Below the pieces are notes generated by a model, which was not told the DNA's origin, did not search any database, and was given only the letters and a program-made list of their open reading frames with translations. This document shows positions 19,688-63,705 of a stretch of 64,000 bases of DNA, one piece after another. The translations under genes were made by a program, and so were the position numbers. This stretch comes from a virus (Duplodnaviria > Caudoviricetes). Numbering within the stretch: position 1 is the first letter of the stretch; every line of letters begins with the position of its first letter. The stretch spans positions 32,001 through 96,000 of the IMG/VR virus record IMGVR_UViG_3300025986_000001. One strand, given 5' to 3'.

Positions 19688-20137
19688 TCAGCCCAGTGGT
19701 CCGTATTCCTGCCTGAGGGTGAAGATCAGCTGACCGGCGGCGGAATCCAGCACGTGGCGCAGGTCGTCGGCGCCGGCGCCGAACGCCGCGGACCGGTGAG
19801 CGCTGTAGAACAGGCCCAGGTCGACGAAGGCCTGCGCCACCTGCGACCCTGTCGCCTGACGGCGATGCCACGTCGCCTGCCCGGCGAGTTCATCGATCTC
19901 AGGGTCGGTGGGGAACCGGCCCTCGCGGGTCAGGAAGCGGGTGAAGTCCTGCGCGACCGCGCGCAGAAACTGCTCGCCGAACGAGCAGGCCAGCGGCACG
20001 GCCGCCTCGTCGTCGTACTCATGCGCGGCCAGCCGGGCCAGCTCCTCGACCGGCAGCATGCCGATCCGCTGGCCGGCCACCTCGATCAGTTCAGTTGACC
20101 CATCGTGCCGCGGCACATGAAGATCCTGGTCCTGCAT
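19688..20137 (-). CDS. Hypothetical protein
   Basis: AAGGAG RBS. Confidence 0.65.
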   Translation of the reverse strand: MQDQDLHVPRHDGSTELIEVAGQRIGMLPVEELARLAAHEYDDEAAVPLACSFGEQFLRAVAQDFTRFLTREGRFPTDPEIDELAGQATWHRRQATGSQVAQAFVDLGLFYSAHRSAAFGAGADDLRHVLDSAAGQLIFTLRQEYGPLG

Positions 20138-48284: not shown

Positions 48285-48360
48285 TGCGGAGTGGAGCAGC
48301 TCGGAGTGCTCGCTGGGCTCATAACCCAGAGGTCGCGCGGTTCAAATCCCGCCTCCGCCA
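48285..48360 (+). tRNA. Initiator tRNA-fMet (CAT)
   Basis: 1-72 mismatch, three G-C pairs in the anticodon stem. Confidence 0.9.
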
Positions 48361-48361
48361 C

Positions 48362-56491: not shown

Positions 56492-56879
56492 TGCGCTACA
56501 TCACTGACTGGACACCGCGGCCTAGCCGCGCCTCAGGATACCGGCATCGCCGCCTGAGCCCGGCGCCAGAACGGGTTGTTCCGCCCTTCGGGATTCCAGG
56601 CTGGGTTGCAGATCTCGCAGCAACACCAGCAGCTGGAGACCGGCGGCGACCCGGCATCCACCACCGGTATCCGGAACCGGTTCGGCCGTAGCGGCTTACC
56701 CCGGTCCTGGCCGTGGTCGGTGTCGTGCCAGCGCTGCGCGCGCCCGGCTTGCATCCCCATGGCCGGGAAGGCTACGCGCCGAGCGGGTGACACCGCCTCC
56801 AAAATCGCGCGCTCGCGCCGGTGGCGGCCGGTAGGCTGGCCCGGCTTTCTCAAACTGAAGATCAGGAGTATCGGCTCGC

Positions 56880-57632
56880 ATGGCCTCACCCACCACTGCA
56901 CTGAACCAGATTCTCGCCGTCCGTGACGGCGTTCGCGAAGACACCCGGCGTGGCGTCACCGAACTGCACCGTGAGGTTGTCAAGGCGCCGCGATTGTCCG
57001 GGATCGCCCGCACCTACGAGAAGATCAACGACGCGGAACCCGACCTGCCCAGCGAGTCCACCCGCGTGCAGCTGGTCGCCGCCGACATCCTGCGCCAGAT
57101 CTGCACGAAGCTCGCCAGGCTGTTCGACGTGACCGCGGCGATGGACTGGACGAACCAGATCGCCAAGGCCGACATCGTCGTCGACGGCGAGGCCCTCGCC
57201 CGGGACGTGCCGGCCACCTACCTGCTGTTCCTGGCCAAGCAGCTCGAGGACGTCGAGACCATCGTGCGCAAGTTGCCGGTGCTCGACCCCTCCGAGACCT
57301 GGACCTGGAACGAGGCCGCCGGCGCCTGGGCGGCCGAGCCGGTCAAGACGACCCGCACCACGAAGGTCCCCCGCAACCATGTCCTGGCCGCGGCCACCGA
57401 CAAGCACGCCGCCCAGGTGCAGATGTACACCGAGGACGTCATCGTCGGCTACTGGCGGACCACGAAGTTCTCCGGCGCCATGCAGGCCGACCAGGTCGAC
57501 AGGCTGATCGAGCGGCTGACCAAGTTGTCCGACGCCGTGAAGTTCGCCCGCGAGCGCGCCAACATGACCGAGGTGATCGACCCGAAGCCCGGCGCCGCCC
57601 TGCTCGGTTACCTGCTTACCGACCTGCGGTAG
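56880..57632 (+). CDS. 250-aa protein of unknown function, candidate partner of the downstream ncRNA
   Basis: AGGAG RBS, strong GC3 bias; LNQILAV, LSGIARTY, VPATYLLFL, KFSGA. Confidence 0.85.
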   Translation: MASPTTALNQILAVRDGVREDTRRGVTELHREVVKAPRLSGIARTYEKINDAEPDLPSESTRVQLVAADILRQICTKLARLFDVTAAMDWTNQIAKADIVVDGEALARDVPATYLLFLAKQLEDVETIVRKLPVLDPSETWTWNEAAGAWAAEPVKTTRTTKVPRNHVLAAATDKHAAQVQMYTEDVIVGYWRTTKFSGAMQADQVDRLIERLTKLSDAVKFARERANMTEVIDPKPGAALLGYLLTDLR

Positions 57633-57671
57633 GGTCCCCAGATGTCCCGCCGCGCATGACGTGCGGCGGGC

Positions 57672-58043
57672 GAGCACAAAACTGAATATCAAGATCAGCC
57701 TGAAAGCACACCCCGTGACACAGTGCAGGTTCGATCCCTGCCCCCGGCTCCACCTGCCGGGGTAGCCCAATGGCAGAGGCGGCGGGGCGCGTCTTAAGAC
57801 TCAAGCTCGCGCTCAAAACTCAACACGAAGGGCCCCGGCGACCCGGTCTACCAGTCCAGGCAACCCCGCACGATGCTGGTTCGAGTCCAGCTCCGGCCTC
57901 CAAACATGGCCGGATAGGTTAATGGCAAACCCTGCGGACCTCAAGCTGACCTGCGACTTTAAACGTACGGGCGCTCGAGACGGGCCAACTCACATACCGT
58001 GATCACTTTAAGAGCCGGCCGGGAAGGGTATCCCGGCCGGCTC
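57672..58043 (+). ncRNA. Candidate ncRNA with two circularly permuted tRNA-like domains and hexamer tracts
   Basis: Order T-arm, 3' acceptor, UCCA, linker, 5' acceptor, D-arm at 57711-57787 and 57866-57937. Confidence 0.8.
58012..58043 (+). terminator. Hairpin closing the ncRNA
   Basis: gagccggccggga / tcccggccggctc; related hairpin at 58776-58808. Confidence 0.75.
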
Positions 58044-58113
58044 GCCTAATCATTTACGCTGCTATATAGACCAAAGTCCCGCCGCCGCGGGCGTGAGAGA
58101 CAAGAGGAACCTG

Positions 58114-58737: not shown

Positions 58738-58822
58738 CCCCCCCCCACTCCCGCAAGCGCGGGCATGAAAGATCAGATCCGGCCGGGATAGGGTATCCCG
58801 GCCGGATCGCCTTATCGCTCGG

Positions 58823-58894
58823 TAGCGGCCCCCGGTCTCGAACCGGGCCAGGCGCCCGTATGAAAGGCGCTGAGCGCCGGTGCTCCCGGCCGCC
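58823..58894 (-). tRNA. tRNA (CAT), Met or Ile2, atypical D-arm
   Basis: Cloverleaf, anticodon loop TTCATAC. Confidence 0.6.
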
Positions 58895-58929
58895 GAGCAC
58901 ACACAGCGGAACGGCACGCAACTCGAAAG

Positions 58930-59002
58930 AAGCCTCGGGCGGACTCGAACCGCTACCACCCGCTTTGCAGGCGAGGCGCCGCACCAGCGACGAGCCGAGG
59001 CC
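58930..59002 (-). tRNA. tRNA-Cys (GCA)
   Basis: Loop CTGCAAA, U73. Confidence 0.75.
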
Positions 59003-59007
59003 ATGCG

Positions 59008-59080
59008 CGCCCTCAAGGGGGATCGAACCCCTGACCTTCCGCTCCGGAGGCGGACGCTCTATCCACTGAGCTACAAGGGC
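59008..59080 (-). tRNA. tRNA-Arg (CCG)
   Basis: Cloverleaf. Confidence 0.9.
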
Positions 59081-59418
59081 AACAACTGCCGCCGGCCACG
59101 GTCGTGCGGCCGCTCGGCATACCGCCGGCGCGCCGAACGCCGCCGGCCGAACTGCGACTTCGCATCCGCCAAGGTCCGCGGGCGCTGGCCGGGGCCGGAG
59201 CATCCGCAGGAGAAGAACAACAGGCCCGCAGCTGCCAGTATCTCCAGCTTGCGCCACTGCGCCAGATCGGCGTGTCGCGGCGCGTGGAAATCCCGACCCA
59301 TCCGGATCATCGGCTGCCGACACCGGCGGCAATCCTGCGGGAGGTAGTCCTTCACCGAACGCCGGCAGAGCAGACAAGCCCAGTGATCCCGATACCGGTC
59401 GAACATGTACCTGCACAT
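59071..59418 (-). CDS. Small zinc-binding protein
   Basis: ACLLCRRS...CRRC..PM..MGRDFHAPR...QWRKL; stop lies inside tRNA-Arg. Confidence 0.75.
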   Translation of the reverse strand: MCRYMFDRYRDHWACLLCRRSVKDYLPQDCRRCRQPMIRMGRDFHAPRHADLAQWRKLEILAAAGLLFFSCGCSGPGQRPRTLADAKSQFGRRRSARRRYAERPHDRGRRQLLPL

Positions 59419-59443
59419 CGCGGCCTCCGTGACCTCGTAGGCG

Positions 59444-59526
59444 TGCCCCTCCCCGGACTTGAACCAGGCATGCGCGCAGCGCGGCGGCTTTACAGGCCGC
59501 TGGACGACCACCCGTCCACGAGAGGC
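59444..59526 (-). tRNA. tRNA-Tyr (GTA)
   Basis: Long variable arm. Confidence 0.8.
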
Positions 59527-59527
59527 A

Positions 59528-59603
59528 TGGGGTGACTGGCGGGACTTGAACCCGCGACGACCGGTACCACAAACCGGCGCTCTACCAGCTGAGCTACAGC
59601 CAC
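59528..59603 (-). tRNA. tRNA-His (GTG)
   Basis: Cloverleaf with CCA. Confidence 0.9.
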
Positions 59604-59605
59604 AG

Positions 59606-59677
59606 TGCCCGAACCGGGGATCGAACCCGGTGCCTCCGCTGTGTGAAAGCGGCGCTCTCCCGATGAGCTATACGGGC
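59606..59677 (-). tRNA. tRNA-Val (CAC)
   Basis: Cloverleaf. Confidence 0.85.
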
Positions 59678-59916
59678 AAGGACGCGGAATCCGCGAGGTC
59701 CAAGATCCCAATCTCGTAGGCGACCTTCACCAGGTTGGCGCGGTTCAGCGCGCCGACCTTGGCCTTGATCCTGGCGATCTGCGTGCTGACGGTGCGCACC
59801 GTCGTCTCGAGCTGCGCGGCGATGTCCTCGTCACGCAGCCCGGCGGCGACCAGCCCGACGATCCGGGCCTCCCACGGCGTCACCACCGGTTTCCGGTAAC
59901 TGCCGTATCCGGTCAC
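59668..59916 (-). CDS. LuxR-type HTH protein
   Basis: TPWEARIVGLVAAG...IAAQL..TVRTV...KVGALNR. Confidence 0.85.
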   Translation of the reverse strand: MTGYGSYRKPVVTPWEARIVGLVAAGLRDEDIAAQLETTVRTVSTQIARIKAKVGALNRANLVKVAYEIGILDLADSASLPV

Positions 59917-59944
59917 TTTTTCAAGCCTCCTGATTTCGGATGCG

Positions 59945-60018
59945 CTCCCCCGGCTGGACTCGAACCAGCACCTCCCGGATTAACAATCCAGTGCTCTACC
60001 CAATTAAGCCACGAGGGA
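59945..60018 (-). tRNA. tRNA-Asn (GTT)
   Basis: Cloverleaf. Confidence 0.85.
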
Positions 60019-60028
60019 AAGTAAGCTG

Positions 60029-60101
60029 TAGGGCCGACGGGACTTGAACCCGCAATTCCCGGGTTGAAAGCCCGGTCGACTCTGCATTCGTCCACGACCC
60101 C
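60029..60101 (-). tRNA. tRNA-Glu (TTC)
   Basis: Loop CTTTCAA. Confidence 0.8.
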
Positions 60102-60110
60102 ATGAATACG

Positions 60111-60183
60111 TGTCTAGGGAGGGGTATCGAACCCCCGGCCTTCCGCTTGTCGAGCGGACGCTCTTCCACTGAGCTACCCGGAC
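60111..60183 (-). tRNA. tRNA-Val (GAC), irregular acceptor stem
   Basis: Loop TCGACAA. Confidence 0.65.
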
Positions 60184-60184
60184 C

Positions 60185-60260
60185 TGGTGGGCCGCCTGGG
60201 GCTCGAACCCAGAACCTACGGATTAAAAGTCCGCAGCTCTATCCATTGAGCTAGCGGCCC
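60185..60260 (-). tRNA. tRNA-Lys (TTT)
   Basis: Cloverleaf with CCA. Confidence 0.92.
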
Positions 60261-60264
60261 ATAG

Positions 60265-60338
60265 TGTCCCCGGGCGGACTCGAACCGCCAGCCTGCGGTT
60301 TAGGAAACCGCTGCTCTATCCGATTGAGCTACGAGGAC
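60265..60338 (-). tRNA. tRNA-Arg (CCT)
   Basis: Cloverleaf. Confidence 0.9.
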
Positions 60339-60550
60339 ACGTCTTTGACGCGTGTGAGACCGGCGATAATGTAGGCCCGACTGAGCTCGGAGGGGGTTGT
60401 CCCCTGTCGGACCGCCTCGGCCTCCAGGGCCTCGGACCATTCGGCGGGAAGCCTCACGGAGTGCACCACCTTGATGCTGGGGCGGTCGTAGACTACTTCC
60501 GCGCCGGCCCAATCCTGGCTCCTGAGTACGGCTTGAGCGTCATCGGTCAT
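60329..60550 (-). CDS. Ribbon-helix-helix-like protein
   Basis: VVHSVRLP...LEAEA..QGTTPSELSR; stop lies inside tRNA-Arg. Confidence 0.7.
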   Translation of the reverse strand: MTDDAQAVLRSQDWAGAEVVYDRPSIKVVHSVRLPAEWSEALEAEAVRQGTTPSELSRAYIIAGLTRVKDVSS

Positions 60551-60566
60551 GACCTGCGATGATACG

Positions 60567-60641
60567 TCCGCCGTGAGGGATTCGAACCCCCGACCCTCGC
60601 ATTAAGAGTGCGCAGCTCCGACCAGACTGAGCTAACGGCGG
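60567..60641 (-). tRNA. tRNA-Lys (CTT)
   Basis: Cloverleaf. Confidence 0.85.
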
Positions 60642-60642
60642 T

Positions 60643-60732
60643 TGGCGGAGAGTTGAGGAGTCGAACCCCCGCCGCTTACGCGACCCCACCGGTTTTCAAG
60701 ACCGGGCGCAGGCCATCCCCGCGGAACCCTCC
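60643..60732 (-). tRNA. tRNA-Ser (TGA)
   Basis: Long variable arm, CCA. Confidence 0.85.
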
Positions 60733-60737
60733 ATGAG

Positions 60738-60811
60738 TCGGGTATGCCGGATTTGAACCGGCGACCTCTCGCTCCCGAAGCGAGCGCGCTACCAAGCTGC
60801 GCTAATACCCG
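60738..60811 (-). tRNA. tRNA-Pro (CGG)
   Basis: Cloverleaf. Confidence 0.9.
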
Positions 60812-60905
60812 GGCGTGTCGCAACCCGCTGACTTCCCACCCGGGGCGCTATTCCCGGACTTCCGGTCCCATTTGTCCGGGCGTGCGCTTCTCACTCGTGG
60901 TACTG

Positions 60906-60978
60906 CGCCCCTGAGGGGACTCGAACCCCTAACATCCGGATCCGTAATCCGGCGCTCTATCCATTGAGCTACACGGGC
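60906..60978 (-). tRNA. tRNA-Arg (ACG)
   Basis: Cloverleaf. Confidence 0.9.
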
Positions 60979-60982
60979 AAGT

Positions 60983-61123
60983 TCAAAACGTTCCCAGCCT
61001 CGGTGGTCCCGCCCGCCGGGCCCATTCCTTGACAAGCATGCCGATCATGTAGCCGCCCCACCAGATGCCTACCGGCGAAGTTCCGAGAAGCAGGATGAAG
61101 TCGATGGTCGGGAAGGGGGCCAT
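60983..61123 (-). CDS. 46-aa membrane peptide
   Basis: MAPFPTIDFILLLG...; fills a tRNA spacer. Confidence 0.45.
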   Translation of the reverse strand: MAPFPTIDFILLLGTSPVGIWWGGYMIGMLVKEWARRAGPPRLGTF

Positions 61124-61148
61124 GAGACGGGAGCCTACCCTCAGGCTG

Positions 61149-61222
61149 TGTCGTCGAGTGGGGTCGAACCACTGACCTCAGAGTTATCAGCTCTGCGCTC
61201 TGACCGACTGAGCTACGACGAC
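61149..61222 (-). tRNA. tRNA-Ile (GAT)
   Basis: Cloverleaf. Confidence 0.9.
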
Positions 61223-61225
61223 ATG

Positions 61226-61311
61226 CGGAAGGAGCGGGATTCGAACCCACGCGAGTTTTACCTCTCCGGTTTAGCAAACCGGCGCCATTGACCAGACTAG
61301 GCGATCCTTCC
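61226..61311 (-). tRNA. tRNA-Ser (GCT)
   Basis: Long variable arm. Confidence 0.9.
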
Positions 61312-61315
61312 AGAG

Positions 61316-61389
61316 CGTCACCGACGGGACTCGAACCCGCGATCTCTTCCTTGACAGGGAAGCGAGCACTCCATCTGCTCTGCGGCGAC
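61316..61389 (-). tRNA. tRNA-Asp (GTC)
   Basis: Cloverleaf. Confidence 0.88.
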
Positions 61390-61390
61390 A

Positions 61391-61467
61391 TGGTGGAGGA
61401 AGGCGGATTTGAACCGCCGGCTTCCCGCTTGCGGAGCGGGCGCTCTGCCGGACTGAGCTATACCCCC
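61391..61467 (-). tRNA. tRNA-Ala (CGC)
   Basis: G3-U70, CCA. Confidence 0.85.
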
Positions 61468-61468
61468 A

Positions 61469-61540
61469 TGGTCGGGAGGCCGGAGTCGAACCGACGTTTC
61501 CGTGTTGCGCACGGCGCGGGTCCTCACCCGCCCTCTCCCG
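61469..61540 (-). tRNA. Aberrant tRNA-like RNA (5-nt anticodon loop, 6-bp D-stem, CCA)
   Basis: T-arm gtcgg-ttcgact-ccggc, ends ACCA. Confidence 0.5.
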
Positions 61541-61644
61541 ATCCCGGTCGCCGCGTGCGTCGCGTCGTTGCCGGGTTCCGCGGTTTCACCCACGCCGCAC
61601 CTCGCCAGGTGTCGAGTAGGGCCGGCCCCACGGCGGGGCATTCG

Positions 61645-61734
61645 TGCGCCTGGGGAGAGTCGAACTCCCACGCGGGTCACCCCGCACTGGTTCCTGAGAC
61701 CAGCGTGTCTACCTCCTGCTTCCACCACAGACGC
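61645..61734 (-). tRNA. tRNA-Leu (CAG)
   Basis: Long variable arm. Confidence 0.88.
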
Positions 61735-61861
61735 GTGCGGTTCTCGGCGAGGGTCAGGCGTACCAGATCGGCCGCGTGCTGCCTCTTCCCAAAGTTCGCG
61801 CTAGCGGTCGGGGACCGTCTGCGCTCTGCGACGCCGGGCCACGCTCCCGGACCGAGAACCG

Positions 61862-61934
61862 AGCCGAAGGGGCGACTTGAACGCCCTACCTGCCGCTTAC
61901 GAGGCGGCTGCTCTACCAGGTGAGCTACATCGGC
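61862..61934 (-). tRNA. tRNA-Thr (CGT)
   Basis: Cloverleaf. Confidence 0.85.
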
Positions 61935-61938
61935 ATGT

Positions 61939-62077
61939 TGGTGGCCGGGGCCGGATTCGAACCGGCGACCTCCTCCTGAGAACCTCACCGGTTGTACACC
62001 CGGGCTCAGCGCGTCCGGCCGGGACCGCGCAGCGAGCAAGAGGCGGAGGTGCTCTGGGCCGCTGAGCTACCTCGGCA
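61939..62077 (-). ncRNA. tRNA-like RNA with a 68-nt structured insert replacing the anticodon loop
   Basis: Intact D- and T-arms, CCA, cctcc/ggagg stem. Confidence 0.75.
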
Positions 62078-62136
62078 CGTTTGTGGACCCCGGCCCGGCT
62101 CTCGCGGGCTGGCAGCATGTCAGCGCAGGGTCAGCG

Positions 62137-62208
62137 CTCCCCGACCAGGATTCGAACCCAGCCCTGCGGAACCAGACTCCGCCGTCCTGCCAGCTAGACC
62201 ATCGGGGA
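62137..62208 (-). tRNA. tRNA-Gln (CTG)
   Basis: Cloverleaf. Confidence 0.85.
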
Positions 62209-62289
62209 TCGGCCTCGCGACGTTCCTGTATCGAGCGCCGCGAGGCAGGTGCCAGGCGCGCCCGCAGCGCTACGGGCGACCTGGGTGAT

Positions 62290-62730
62290 TCAGCGGGCCA
62301 GCGAGGCCCACGTCGGTGCGGCCGGCTTGACGAGCAGCACCATGCCGGCTTCGGCCGGCGTCCGGTCGGCCTTGTGCTGGTTGCACCGGTCGCATGAGGC
62401 GACGGTGTTCTTCCAGCTGTTGCGGCCGCCGCGGGAGCGGGGCTGGATGTGGTCGACCGTGGTGGCCGCGCCGCGGCAGTAGCCGCAGATCCTGCCGTCG
62501 CGCACCATGACGCCCTTGCGGGACCAGGTGGGGCCGGCGGTGTGCCGCCACTTCGTGTACACGTACTTGATCAGCCGCACGACCTTCGGCTTCGGGAAGA
62601 CGCCGATGAGCTTGTCGCTCTCGAACTCGTGCAGCTCGGCGACCTGGCGGACCAGCATCCTGATGGCGTGGCGCAGGCTCACGCGGTGCAGGGGTCCGAG
62701 GTCGGCGTTGACGACCAGAACATCACTCAC
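62290..62730 (-). CDS. HNH endonuclease
   Basis: VLVVNAD, RDGRICGYC, TVDHIQPRSRGG, SCDRCNQHK; AAGGAGG RBS. Confidence 0.92.
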   Translation of the reverse strand: MSDVLVVNADLGPLHRVSLRHAIRMLVRQVAELHEFESDKLIGVFPKPKVVRLIKYVYTKWRHTAGPTWSRKGVMVRDGRICGYCRGAATTVDHIQPRSRGGRNSWKNTVASCDRCNQHKADRTPAEAGMVLLVKPAAPTWASLAR

Positions 62731-62771
62731 CGGGTTCACCTCCTTTATGCGATCAAGATACCGGCGACGAG

Positions 62772-62844
62772 AGCGGCTGACCGGGATCGAACCGGTGACC
62801 TCCGCCTTGGCAAGGCGGCGCGCTACCAGCTGCGCTACAACCGC
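62772..62844 (-). tRNA. tRNA-Gly (GCC)
   Basis: Cloverleaf. Confidence 0.9.
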
Positions 62845-62864
62845 ATGAACTACGGCGGCAGGAG

Positions 62865-62938
62865 AGCCCCGCGGGGGACTCGAACCCCCACTGGACCGCA
62901 TGTTGAGTACGGCGCCTCTACCGTTGGGCTACCAGGGC
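62865..62938 (-). tRNA. tRNA-Leu (CAA), short variable region
   Basis: Loop CTCAACA. Confidence 0.75.
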
Positions 62939-62942
62939 GAAG

Positions 62943-63014
62943 AGCGGACGACGGGAATTGAACCCGCGCAACCAGTTTGGAAGACTGGGACTCTGCCGAT
63001 TGAGCTACATCCGC
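62943..63014 (-). tRNA. tRNA-Gly (TCC)
   Basis: Cloverleaf. Confidence 0.88.
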
Positions 63015-63147
63015 GAGCGTCACAGGGTTGGCGTCGGCCGGGAGTCAAATCCTCTGCGAGCAGGACGGCCGTCCTGGCATCGCTTTCTCGGACCTCGAGT
63101 CAAACGGGATCGCCTTGTGACTGGCGTCCCCGGCGCCGGGGACGTTG

Positions 63148-63223
63148 TAGGCCAGGCCGGATTTGAACCGGCGATCTCCGCCTTGAGAGGGCGGCGAGCA
63201 CTCCAGACTGCTGCCGCTGGCCC
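63148..63223 (-). tRNA. tRNA-Glu (CTC)
   Basis: Cloverleaf. Confidence 0.85.
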
Positions 63224-63276
63224 ATTCGAGCTGCCGCCGGCAGGGGAACACGCCCCTGGTGTTTCTGACGGCAACG

Positions 63277-63350
63277 TGCCCGCGGCCGGTTTCGATCCGG
63301 CGGCCTCTGCCTTTTCAGGGCAGCGCTCTCCCAAACTGAGCTACACGGGC
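63277..63350 (-). tRNA. tRNA-Phe (GAA)
   Basis: Cloverleaf. Confidence 0.88.
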
Positions 63351-63455
63351 GCGAGGTTTTAGCTGGTCGACTTACGCCCTGACGGCGCCCGGCTATCCGG
63401 GTGGACCGTCTGTGGGCCACCCAACGGAAGCCCGGACGGCTCGACCATCGCCAAG

Positions 63456-63528
63456 TGGAGCCTGCCGGAGTCGAACCGGCGACCTTCTCCCTGCCGAGGA
63501 GACGCGCTGCCAGCTGCGCCAAGGCCCC
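63456..63528 (-). tRNA. tRNA-Ala (GGC)
   Basis: G3-U70. Confidence 0.85.
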
Positions 63529-63632
63529 ATGGTGCCCCGGCCGGCGTACCGTCCGGGGCGATCTCATGCCATTCCACTGTGCAGTTCTCAAGTCATGCCA
63601 TGTCCGTGCCCGCCGCGGCGGGGGACCGTACG

Positions 63633-63705
63633 CGCGGGTGGCACGAATTGAACGCGCACCTGCCGGTTTTGGAGACCGGAGCTCTACCGGTTGAGCTACA
63701 CCCAC
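63633..63705 (-). tRNA. tRNA-Trp (CCA)
   Basis: Cloverleaf. Confidence 0.88.

Follow-up and report, generated by a model that had tools for sequence, protein, structure and literature searches.

What is encoded in the stretch that follows a gene for a domain of unknown function, DUF7873, beside the tRNA array of a tailed virus? We addressed this question in a 64,000-nucleotide window covering bases 32001-96000 of the 130,757-bp IMG/VR virus record IMGVR_UViG_3300025986_000001 (Duplodnaviria; Caudoviricetes), which is 93% complete. On the plus strand of the window lies a two-part cassette, composed of the DUF7873 gene (56880-57632) and a structured RNA (~57633-58050), in which an original prediction had noticed two circularly permuted tRNA-like domains. 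It is essentially certain that this RNA is a conserved structured non-coding RNA (ncRNA) co-inherited with DUF7873. The cassette is probably an undescribed protein-RNA machine, in style akin to Ro60 and its Y RNA. The kind of system, a protein with a tRNA-mimicking ncRNA, is known; what is new is the cassette, for which we found no Rfam family, paper or annotation.

An RNA with two permuted tRNA-like modules

From 5' to 3', the RNA comprises one or more hairpins, a segment apparently pairing with the middle of tract B, then tract A, module 1, tract B, a spacer, module 2, tract C and a terminal hairpin. In both modules, a T-arm with GGTTCGAnnCC, a 7-bp acceptor, U8-A9 and a D-arm with GG are joined such that the 3' half of the tRNA precedes its 5' half; the anticodon loop is missing from both, and a 5-bp closing stem replaces the anticodon stem. 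Module 1 (57711-57787, plus strand, as are all features of the cassette) runs in the order closing stem, variable region, T-arm (57725-57741), acceptor and D-arm (57765-57780). The first acceptor strand, CCCCGGC (57742-57748), is followed by U, CCA (57750-57752), the linker CCU, the second strand GCCGGGG (57756-57762) and UA, and the closing stem pairs ccccg (57711-57715) with cgggg (57783-57787). In module 2 (57866-57937), the T-arm (57875-57891) precedes UCCGGCC (57892-57898), U, CCA, the linker AACAU, GGCCGGA (57908-57914), UA and the D-arm (57917-57931), and ccgca (57866-57870) pairs with tgcgg (57933-57937). The loops that close the acceptors are UCCACCU in module 1 and UCCAAACAU in module 2. 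The positions given in the original prediction for the modules, the tracts, the hexamers in the 5' untranslated region (UTR) of the gene and the upstream TAGGCT were all confirmed.

Across 38 loci aligned with MAFFT, pairing in the T-arm, the acceptor and the D-arm reached 98-99%, with changes on both sides in 14 of the 15 pairs; no shuffle attained the observed covariation, and slid registers were only 36-49% paired. RNAalifold, applied to 86 sequences, recovered the same three helices and predicted the tract columns to be unpaired. The closing stems, which span 5-8 bp across homologs and open into single-stranded tracts, were too variable in length for MAFFT, and we instead compared pairing between strands of the same locus with pairing to strands of other loci. 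Strands from the same locus paired better (p = 9e-10 for module 1 and 8e-6 for module 2). The predicted pair of permuted modules without an anticodon loop is thus upheld, with covariation across 38 to 86 homologous loci. Neither module was called by ARAGORN or by the Rfam tRNA model; their closing stems open into the flanking tracts. A minimum-free-energy fold of the window RNA alone recovered module 2 and misfolded module 1, and was excluded from the evidence.

The two modules differ in type. Module 1 has a class-II, tRNA-Leu-like D-arm with a 3-bp stem. Its sequence is GCCCAAnnGGYAGAGGC among actinobacterial versions and GGCGGAAUUGGUAGACGC in that of a Klebsiella phage; judged by sequence, both forms are typical of tRNA-Leu. 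Module 2 has a D-arm of class-I type. Among 101 distinct loci, the discriminator position is A in 82 for module 1 and U in 72 for module 2, the window having U, not A, in module 1. The spacer between the modules (57818-57865) is conserved in length, and in most loci 90-99 nt separate the D-arm of module 1 from the T-arm of module 2. Module 1 is swapped for an unrelated fold in some lineages (L161, L013 and L071), which keep tracts A, B and C and module 2. Insertions in the acceptor loops indicate that the acceptor tip tolerates added domains. One such insertion, of ~118 nt, lies within the module 1 acceptor loop of a Streptosporangium locus (L093:6860-6960), and the module 2 loops of phages of Arthrobacter and Rhodococcus contain smaller inserted hairpins.

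The RNA is co-inherited with DUF7873

Searches with tblastn revealed the DUF7873 gene in phages of Gordonia, Arthrobacter, Rhodococcus, Pseudanabaena, Vibrio, Klebsiella/Serratia, Rhizobium and Ralstonia. Every record inspected has an unannotated gap of 350-700 bp 3' of the gene, mostly within a tRNA array, and permuted modules are present in these gaps across diverse phages. A pattern finder located modules downstream of the gene in 76 of 80 IMG/VR loci (exactly two in 42), so that the proposed check, conservation of the modules alongside homologs of the protein, came out in favor of the original prediction. A covariance model, R1, spanning tract A, module 1 and tract B, scores 117.5 bits at module 1 of the window. 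It gave full-length matches of 50-130 bits directly 3' of the gene in most of 80 viral loci, and did likewise in no fewer than 73 of the 80 loci taken from bacterial chromosomes (Actinomycetota, Chloroflexota, Deinococcales and Armatimonadota). A partial R1 match ~190 nt beyond the first marks module 2 (39.8 bits in the window). More than 578 bacterial species carry DUF7873 among the matches listed, and in two bacterial genomes inspected the cassette stands alone amid unrelated metabolic and regulatory genes, outside any prophage or tRNA array.

Presence and absence were compared in 121 genomes of one actinobacterial order, with R1 applied at E <= 1e-6. DUF7873 is intact in 22 of these genomes, frameshifted in one (G082) and fragmentary in two (G095 and G029). 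R1 was positive in exactly 24 genomes, namely the 22 with an intact gene, G082 and G095, each with a single copy that lies on the strand of the gene, 45-110 nt downstream; the other 97 genomes had zero matches. The notion of protein and ncRNA as a unit therefore holds almost without exception across the viral, bacterial and single-order sets. TROVE (Ro60) is encoded in 48 of the 121 genomes, 32 of which lack the RNA; it is missing from 8 of the 24 RNA-bearing genomes and never adjoins the RNA. The absence of Ro60/Rsr and SmpB, noted initially for the window, extends to the whole virus record, in which we found neither TROVE nor SmpB. Since the RNA tracks DUF7873 rather than TROVE, and the virus carries neither TROVE nor SmpB, the partner of the RNA is DUF7873, not Ro60.

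Gene and RNA need not be neighbors. Herpetosiphon aurantiacus DSM 785 has a single DUF7873 gene at 3.008 Mb, and its RNA, a full-length R1 match of 119 bits, is located at 1.172 Mb on the other strand (minus; ~1,172,200-1,172,560), 1.8 Mb apart. It lies in a 700-bp intergenic region, with TACAAT, a promoter-like -10 element, on its 5' side and a terminator-like hairpin with a T-run on its 3' side. That the pair is kept though unlinked indicates that the RNA is not just a 3' UTR element and that it can act in trans. In two Herpetosiphon loci (L106:4735-4900 and L110:4725-4900), short tandem repeats (CATAGAA/CATAGAG, GGGTCAGG) and no RNA are found 3' of the gene. The open reading frame (ORF) that follows these repeats (GDALG...EF...GQWTDDT.M), read by eye only, presumably encodes an ADP-ribosylglycohydrolase-like protein.

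Periodic tracts and a probable long-range helix

Flanking the modules are tract A (57682-57705; CTGAAT ATCAAG ATCAGC CTGAAA), the conserved block of tract B (57794-57817) and tract C (57940-57963; CTCAAG CTGACC TGCGAC TTTAAA). The pattern TSARNNTSARNNTSAR has 4 matches on the two strands of the window, compared with 0.21 expected from shuffles, and 3 of the 4 fall in the cassette locus; the fourth (19713-19730), inside a minus-strand ORF, was taken as chance. Across the family, tract A follows CUSARN four times over, with the consensus CAAG CUGAAA CUGAAG CUCAAG CUGAAG and nearly all information in U2 and A4. The consensus of tract B is CUCAGR YUMUCG CUCYAG NCUYAGCA, and that of tract C is ..CUGAYC..N..CUUAAACG. 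Distant versions retain U-N-A at a 6-nt period, as in CUAAAA CUCAAA CUAAAA (a Vibrio phage), GUUAGC repeats (phiRSL1) and CUUAUC UUUAUU GUUAGU (a Klebsiella phage), and the positions between the fixed bases vary freely, both within and between genomes. The hexamer takes the form CUSARN in actinobacterial versions and NUUAKN in those of proteobacterial phages. Because only U2 and A4 are fixed, a repeated protein surface fits the tracts better than base pairing with a fixed target. For the same reason, a role as base-pairing guide is unlikely for tract A; pairing is accepted for the centre of tract B, which pairs within the RNA. A coding reading of the tracts, as an LK-type peptide or a tag of the transfer-messenger RNA (tmRNA) kind, was ruled out, as there is no start and no conserved frame or stop.

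The centre of tract B (YCGCUCC in the family; GCUCGC, 57805-57810, in the window) is complementary to a segment just 5' of tract A (GGAGCG in the family; GCGAGC, 57670-57675, in the window). Covariants of this helix include GAAGUG/CACUUC, GAAGCG/CGCUUC, UGAGUA/UACUCA, GGAGUG/CACUCC, GGAGUA/UACUCC, GGACG/CGUCC and GGACA/UGUCC. In the fixed register, 63% of cells pair, compared with 42-50% in slid registers, and 0 of 2000 shuffles match the observed count. Among sequences with a non-consensus core, pairing is complete with the partner from the same locus in 48% and with partners from other loci in 14.5%. An alternative register in the window pairs 57672-57675 with 57811-57814. The centre of tract B thus appears, with moderate support from these comparisons, to supply one side of a long-range helix whose strands covary. 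The helix is missing from some phage versions; in versions that have it, tract A and module 1, together with the first part of tract B, lie within it as one domain. The description of the flanking tracts as hexamer repeats accordingly stands for tract A, with its four hexamers and fixed U2 and A4, and gives way at the centre of tract B, which appears to be a helix strand.

Two hairpins lie at the ends of the RNA. Hairpin P1 (57646-57670), right after the stop codon, has equivalents in homologs, often with a YUGAGCR loop, and is not an intrinsic terminator, as it lacks a T-run. The GC-rich hairpin at 58012-58043, with the loop AAGGGUAU (family consensus GGRUAU), is likely the 3' end and terminator of the RNA.

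Hexamers upstream of the gene are limited to some lineages

In the window, three in-phase hexamers, CTCAAA CTGAAG ATCAGG (56849-56866), run into the AGGAG Shine-Dalgarno sequence (56864-56868), 11 nt upstream of the ATG. The candidate -10 hexamer TAGGCT is present at 56832-56837, and a sigma-70 promoter scan returned no site there. In 14 of 68 homologous loci, the 45 nt preceding the start codon contain at least two in-phase hexamers, as do 1.2% of control windows drawn from the same set of loci (binomial p ~1e-13, a value that counts related loci as independent and that purine-rich Shine-Dalgarno sequences may inflate). The hexamers typically merge into the Shine-Dalgarno sequence, e.g., CUGAGGAG and CUGAAGGAA. 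We read this enrichment as real but lineage-limited, so that the idea of a conserved UTR tract holds for these 14 loci and fails for most others, which lack it.

Many Streptosporangiaceae copies have TAnnnT ~7 nt upstream of a GTG start, and the mRNAs of many bacterial DUF7873 genes are, by this arrangement, probably leaderless. A motif, AAAT..(C/G)AGGTGTGA, is shared ~45 nt upstream of the gene by eight loci (L094, L105, L107, L108, L112, L115, L123 and L125), ~25 nt before a TAnnnT directly adjacent to the GTG start, and could serve a leaderless mRNA of Streptosporangiaceae as promoter or as regulator site.

DUF7873 is a large family with an unmatched fold

The 250-amino-acid gene product belongs to Pfam DUF7873 (PF25283), which it matches with 314.5 bits (E 7.3e-94; profile positions 2-242 of 244; cut-off 27 bits). 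The family counts more than 4000 homologs in a collection at 90% identity and 2207 clusters at 50% identity. Its AlphaFold2 model (predicted local distance difference test score 94.6) has four long helices against a beta-sheet. Foldseek against PDB and BFVD, VIA-align, the ESM Atlas and a PDB sequence profile yielded no convincing fold match. The best row, an uncharacterised Corynebacterium protein (3kdq; Z 7.8, root-mean-square deviation 7.7), is unconvincing, and weak Cas7 rows (TM ~0.1) were not counted as evidence. PHROGs, PADLOC and NCBIfam gave no assignment, and the hidden Markov models of PADLOC-DB 2.0 matched neither the window protein nor two bacterial homologs. The residues N92, K120, K162, R224 and N228, as well as H176 and D186, are invariant polar positions. 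In a literature search, we found no paper naming DUF7873, none on tandem permuted tRNA-like RNAs and no earlier account of the cassette.

The RNA lies outside described families

At gathering thresholds, Rfam identified only tRNAs in the window. The YrlA model (RF02553) scores 29.1 bits at 57867-57939 and 18.1 bits at 57724-57780, covering model positions 23-88 only and not reaching its gathering score of 69; scores at homologous loci are 22-38 bits. No copy of the Ro60-binding motif GNCGAAN0-1G lies in 57633-58050; 29 of 109 loci have one, at positions that are not conserved. No tmRNA was found in the window by the Rfam tmRNA models or ARAGORN, and homologous loci match beta_tmRNA partially, with 20-25 bits in the acceptor and T-arm part only. 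The acceptor pair 3:70 is C-G in both modules, so that the G3:U70 alanine identity pair is missing, and the YAG of tract B alternates between UAG/UAA and CAG across loci, with no reading frame conserved. At permissive E-values, the one match besides YrlA, to PtaRNA1 at 57975-58047 (33.6 bits, gathering 47), rests on the GC-rich terminal hairpin and is not meaningful. The RNA thus belongs to no Rfam family, and the possibility raised at the outset, that it would match a described one, did not materialize.

A ribonucleoprotein model and its rivals

Co-inheritance, the conservation pattern of the tracts and the copies of the hexamers in the UTR lead us to lean, with slightly better than even confidence, towards a ribonucleoprotein (RNP) in which DUF7873 reads the periodic tracts and two tRNA mimics are displayed. 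DUF7873, probably oligomeric, would read U-N-A every 6 nt in the single-stranded tracts, in a TRAP- or CsrA-like manner. The RNP so assembled would offer two tRNA-like elbows to RNase P, the CCA-adding enzyme, modification enzymes and possibly leucyl-tRNA synthetase (LeuRS), as YrlA does in the Ro60 RNP. In phage copies with a 5' UTR, free protein bound to the hexamers beside the Shine-Dalgarno sequence would repress its own translation. The cellular role would most likely be in tRNA surveillance, processing or protection.

In its most far-reaching form, which we put forward tentatively and regard as unlikely to hold in full, the proposal is that of a new RNP class. An oligomeric protein of new fold would read a 6-nt U-N-A code and hold a pair of split tRNA mimics, one of which could accept leucine after processing by RNase P as well as the CCA-adding enzyme. 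The particle would sense, buffer or decoy factors that act on tRNA, such as nucleases, nucleotidyltransferases, processing enzymes and synthetases, serving accessory tRNA surveillance or immunity in bacteria and protection of translation in large phages that carry tRNAs.

Several observations weigh against the RNP model or parts of it. The protein has a pI of ~6, its sequence itself gives no sign of RNA binding, and neither a recognizable RNA-binding domain nor a matching fold emerged from the structure and profile searches. Some loci, such as L075, have the gene without a detectable RNA nearby. With tract B partly a helix strand, as it appears from the covariation, not all of the hexamers would be free sites. 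The acceptor is followed by an encoded NCCA in 41% (module 1) and 32% (module 2) of the loops, which makes an encoded CCA end common, not required, and the acceptor loops, mostly 6-8 nt long, include hairpin-closed ones and insertions of up to 120 nt. Since the UTR hexamers occur in about one-fifth of the loci and many bacterial copies are probably leaderless, self-repression through the UTR cannot be a general property of the cassette. Finally, the idea of a decoy for tRNA-targeting nucleases would have to explain why over 500 bacterial species have the cassette on the chromosome as a stand-alone copy.

Four other explanations were weighed against the RNP model. That the RNA is an ordinary YrlA Y RNA, with Ro60 encoded elsewhere and DUF7873 a mere neighbor, is close to refuted. 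The tRNA-like part of both modules does draw sub-threshold YrlA matches, and phages with Ro60 and YrlA are known (PMC4201824). Yet these scores stay far under the gathering value, the Ro60-binding motif is missing from the window RNA and unconserved in the family, no TROVE is found in a 93%-complete phage, and in the single-order set the RNA follows DUF7873 exactly while TROVE and RNA occur without each other and never side by side. Hardly more probable is a functionless region, either a 3' UTR or terminator acting in cis or a decayed pair of tRNA pseudogenes. The position directly 3' of the gene on the same strand, and the tRNA genes around phage copies, would suit such a reading, which is contradicted by deep conservation with compensatory changes across phyla, by one copy per genome solely where the gene is present, and by what appears from its sequence to be an independent transcription unit in Herpetosiphon, 1.8 Mb from the gene.

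The remaining two give the tRNA mimicry a function of another kind. DUF7873 could be a toxin or enzyme that acts on tRNAs, with the modules occupying its tRNA sites as inhibitor or regulator and the tracts serving structure or processing. We regard this as improbable, even though strict co-inheritance and tight linkage are as expected of it, the RNA is kept in the genomes with a frameshifted or fragmentary gene (G082 and G095), as for an antitoxin that outlives its toxin, the cassettes in the two bacterial genomes inspected stand alone amid unrelated genes near the ends of very large contigs, and the invariant polar residues could make up an active site. PADLOC, NCBIfam and toxin families all lack a match, a separation of 1.8 Mb is unusual for a toxin-antitoxin pair, and module 1 can be replaced by a non-tRNA fold while the tracts stay. 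Type III antitoxins consist of tandem repeats of ~30 nt or more upstream of the toxin gene, a layout that differs from that of the cassette. Slightly more doubtful still is an RNA that mainly engages the translation or tRNA machinery of the host, with module 1 charged by LeuRS after being cut by RNase P and given its CCA, contact with EF-Tu or the ribosome, and DUF7873 as an SmpB-like helper. LeuRS takes no account of the anticodon and has A73 as its main identity element. The prevalence of A at the module 1 discriminator (82 of 101 loci), the Leu-like class II D-arm, the 7-bp acceptors of both modules, the NCCA in 41% of module 1 loops, tracts rich in CUS (Leu) triplets and the location of phage cassettes inside tRNA arrays all fit this explanation. 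It is at odds with the U at the module 1 discriminator of the window, with acceptor loops that commonly lack CCA or carry hairpins and insertions of up to 120 nt, with the lack of a conserved reading frame or stop (the YAG of tract B) and of a G3:U70 pair, and with the failure of Rfam and ARAGORN to see a tmRNA at the locus. Among these explanations, the RNP model is the one we prefer.

The cassette in phage genomes

The window carries 29 tRNA genes on the minus strand (58821-63705) and one tRNA-Met on the plus strand (48285-48361), and the tRNA set of the virus record is near-complete. The cassette lies just upstream of this array, on the opposite strand. Weak partial R1 matches occur at junctions between tRNA genes on the minus strand of the window (61905-61966 and ~62910-62967; G000:C1:93905-93966 and 94910-94967). 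A tandem duplication of a tRNA yields a permuted unit and is a plausible candidate for the origin of the modules.

In phage annotations, the ncRNA region is blank or covered by small ORFs. In Gordonia phage GodonK, gene 151 (L001:4733-4861, minus strand), which lies antisense to module 2 and tract C and overlaps them, is likely a spurious ORF call; in Keelan, gene 124 (L003:3468-3575) is a small hypothetical ORF annotated at or beside the ncRNA region. GodonK also contains a full-length tmRNA according to Rfam (L001:1114-1642, 90 bits), where GenBank has only a 62-nt 'tRNA-His' at 1193-1254 inside it, probably a misannotation. In Pseudanabaena phage PA-SR01, a permuted tmRNA model matches with 31.9 bits (gathering 47) at L006:5293-5472, ~2 kb downstream of the cassette.

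The RNA explains the recurrent unannotated gap of 350-700 bp in phage tRNA arrays, and DUF7873 gains a function-relevant partner. The cassette is widespread, occurring in bacteria as well as in phages of Actinomycetota, Cyanobacteria and Pseudomonadota. With its 1.2 kb, it offers a compact system, available in culturable hosts and SEA-PHAGES phages, for studying how RNAs mimic tRNA, how RNase P processes RNAs other than tRNAs and how periodic signals in RNA are recognized.

Comparison with known systems

The nearest described system is YrlA with Ro60 (M. smegmatis type; Chen et al. 2014, PMC4201824). Both cassettes pair a bacterial or phage ncRNA with a dedicated protein gene beside it, and both RNAs have the permuted order of T-arm, loop-closed acceptor and D-arm. 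The M. smegmatis RNA is the one YrlA with a 7-bp acceptor, as found here; RNase P cleaves it in vitro and in vivo, after which CCA is present (PMC4201824). It is a direct precedent for the cutting of the acceptor loops put forward in the original prediction. The differences are several. The partner is DUF7873, with 250 amino acids and an unmatched fold, instead of the TROVE ring protein. The RNA described here spans ~400 nt, compared with 80-130 nt, and has two tandem modules, the first of tRNA-Leu type, along with hexamer tracts of 6-nt period and a long-range helix; it has neither a long terminal stem nor a Ro60-binding motif.

Two-piece tmRNA with SmpB likewise places the T-arm and the 3' acceptor strand with CCA before the 5' acceptor strand and has a small dedicated protein partner, whereas the RNA of the cassette has a full D-arm, no tag frame, no G3:U70, no detected pseudoknots and no SmpB. 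The permuted tRNA genes of Cyanidioschyzon merolae also encode the 3' half of the tRNA before the 5' half, but theirs become complete tRNAs with an anticodon loop after circularisation, while here the loop is missing and the 'anticodon stem' opens into the flanks. TRAP, with its (G/U)AG repeats, and CsrA/CsrB/RsmZ are alike by analogy only, in signals of 5-6-nt period on single-stranded regulatory RNA and over Shine-Dalgarno sequences; we found no relation of sequence or fold to DUF7873, and the repeats of the cassette flank tRNA-like domains. In contrast to type III toxin-antitoxin systems of the ToxIN kind, to which the cassette does not belong, its RNA is downstream of the gene and its repeats measure 6 nt.

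To our knowledge, bacterial RNPs based on tRNA mimicry are few, namely Ro60/YrlA and SmpB/tmRNA. The cassette would be the third, set apart by its protein, by the two modules of its RNA and by a periodic sequence code, and, if the periodic code and the new mode of action prove true, it would deserve a class of its own.

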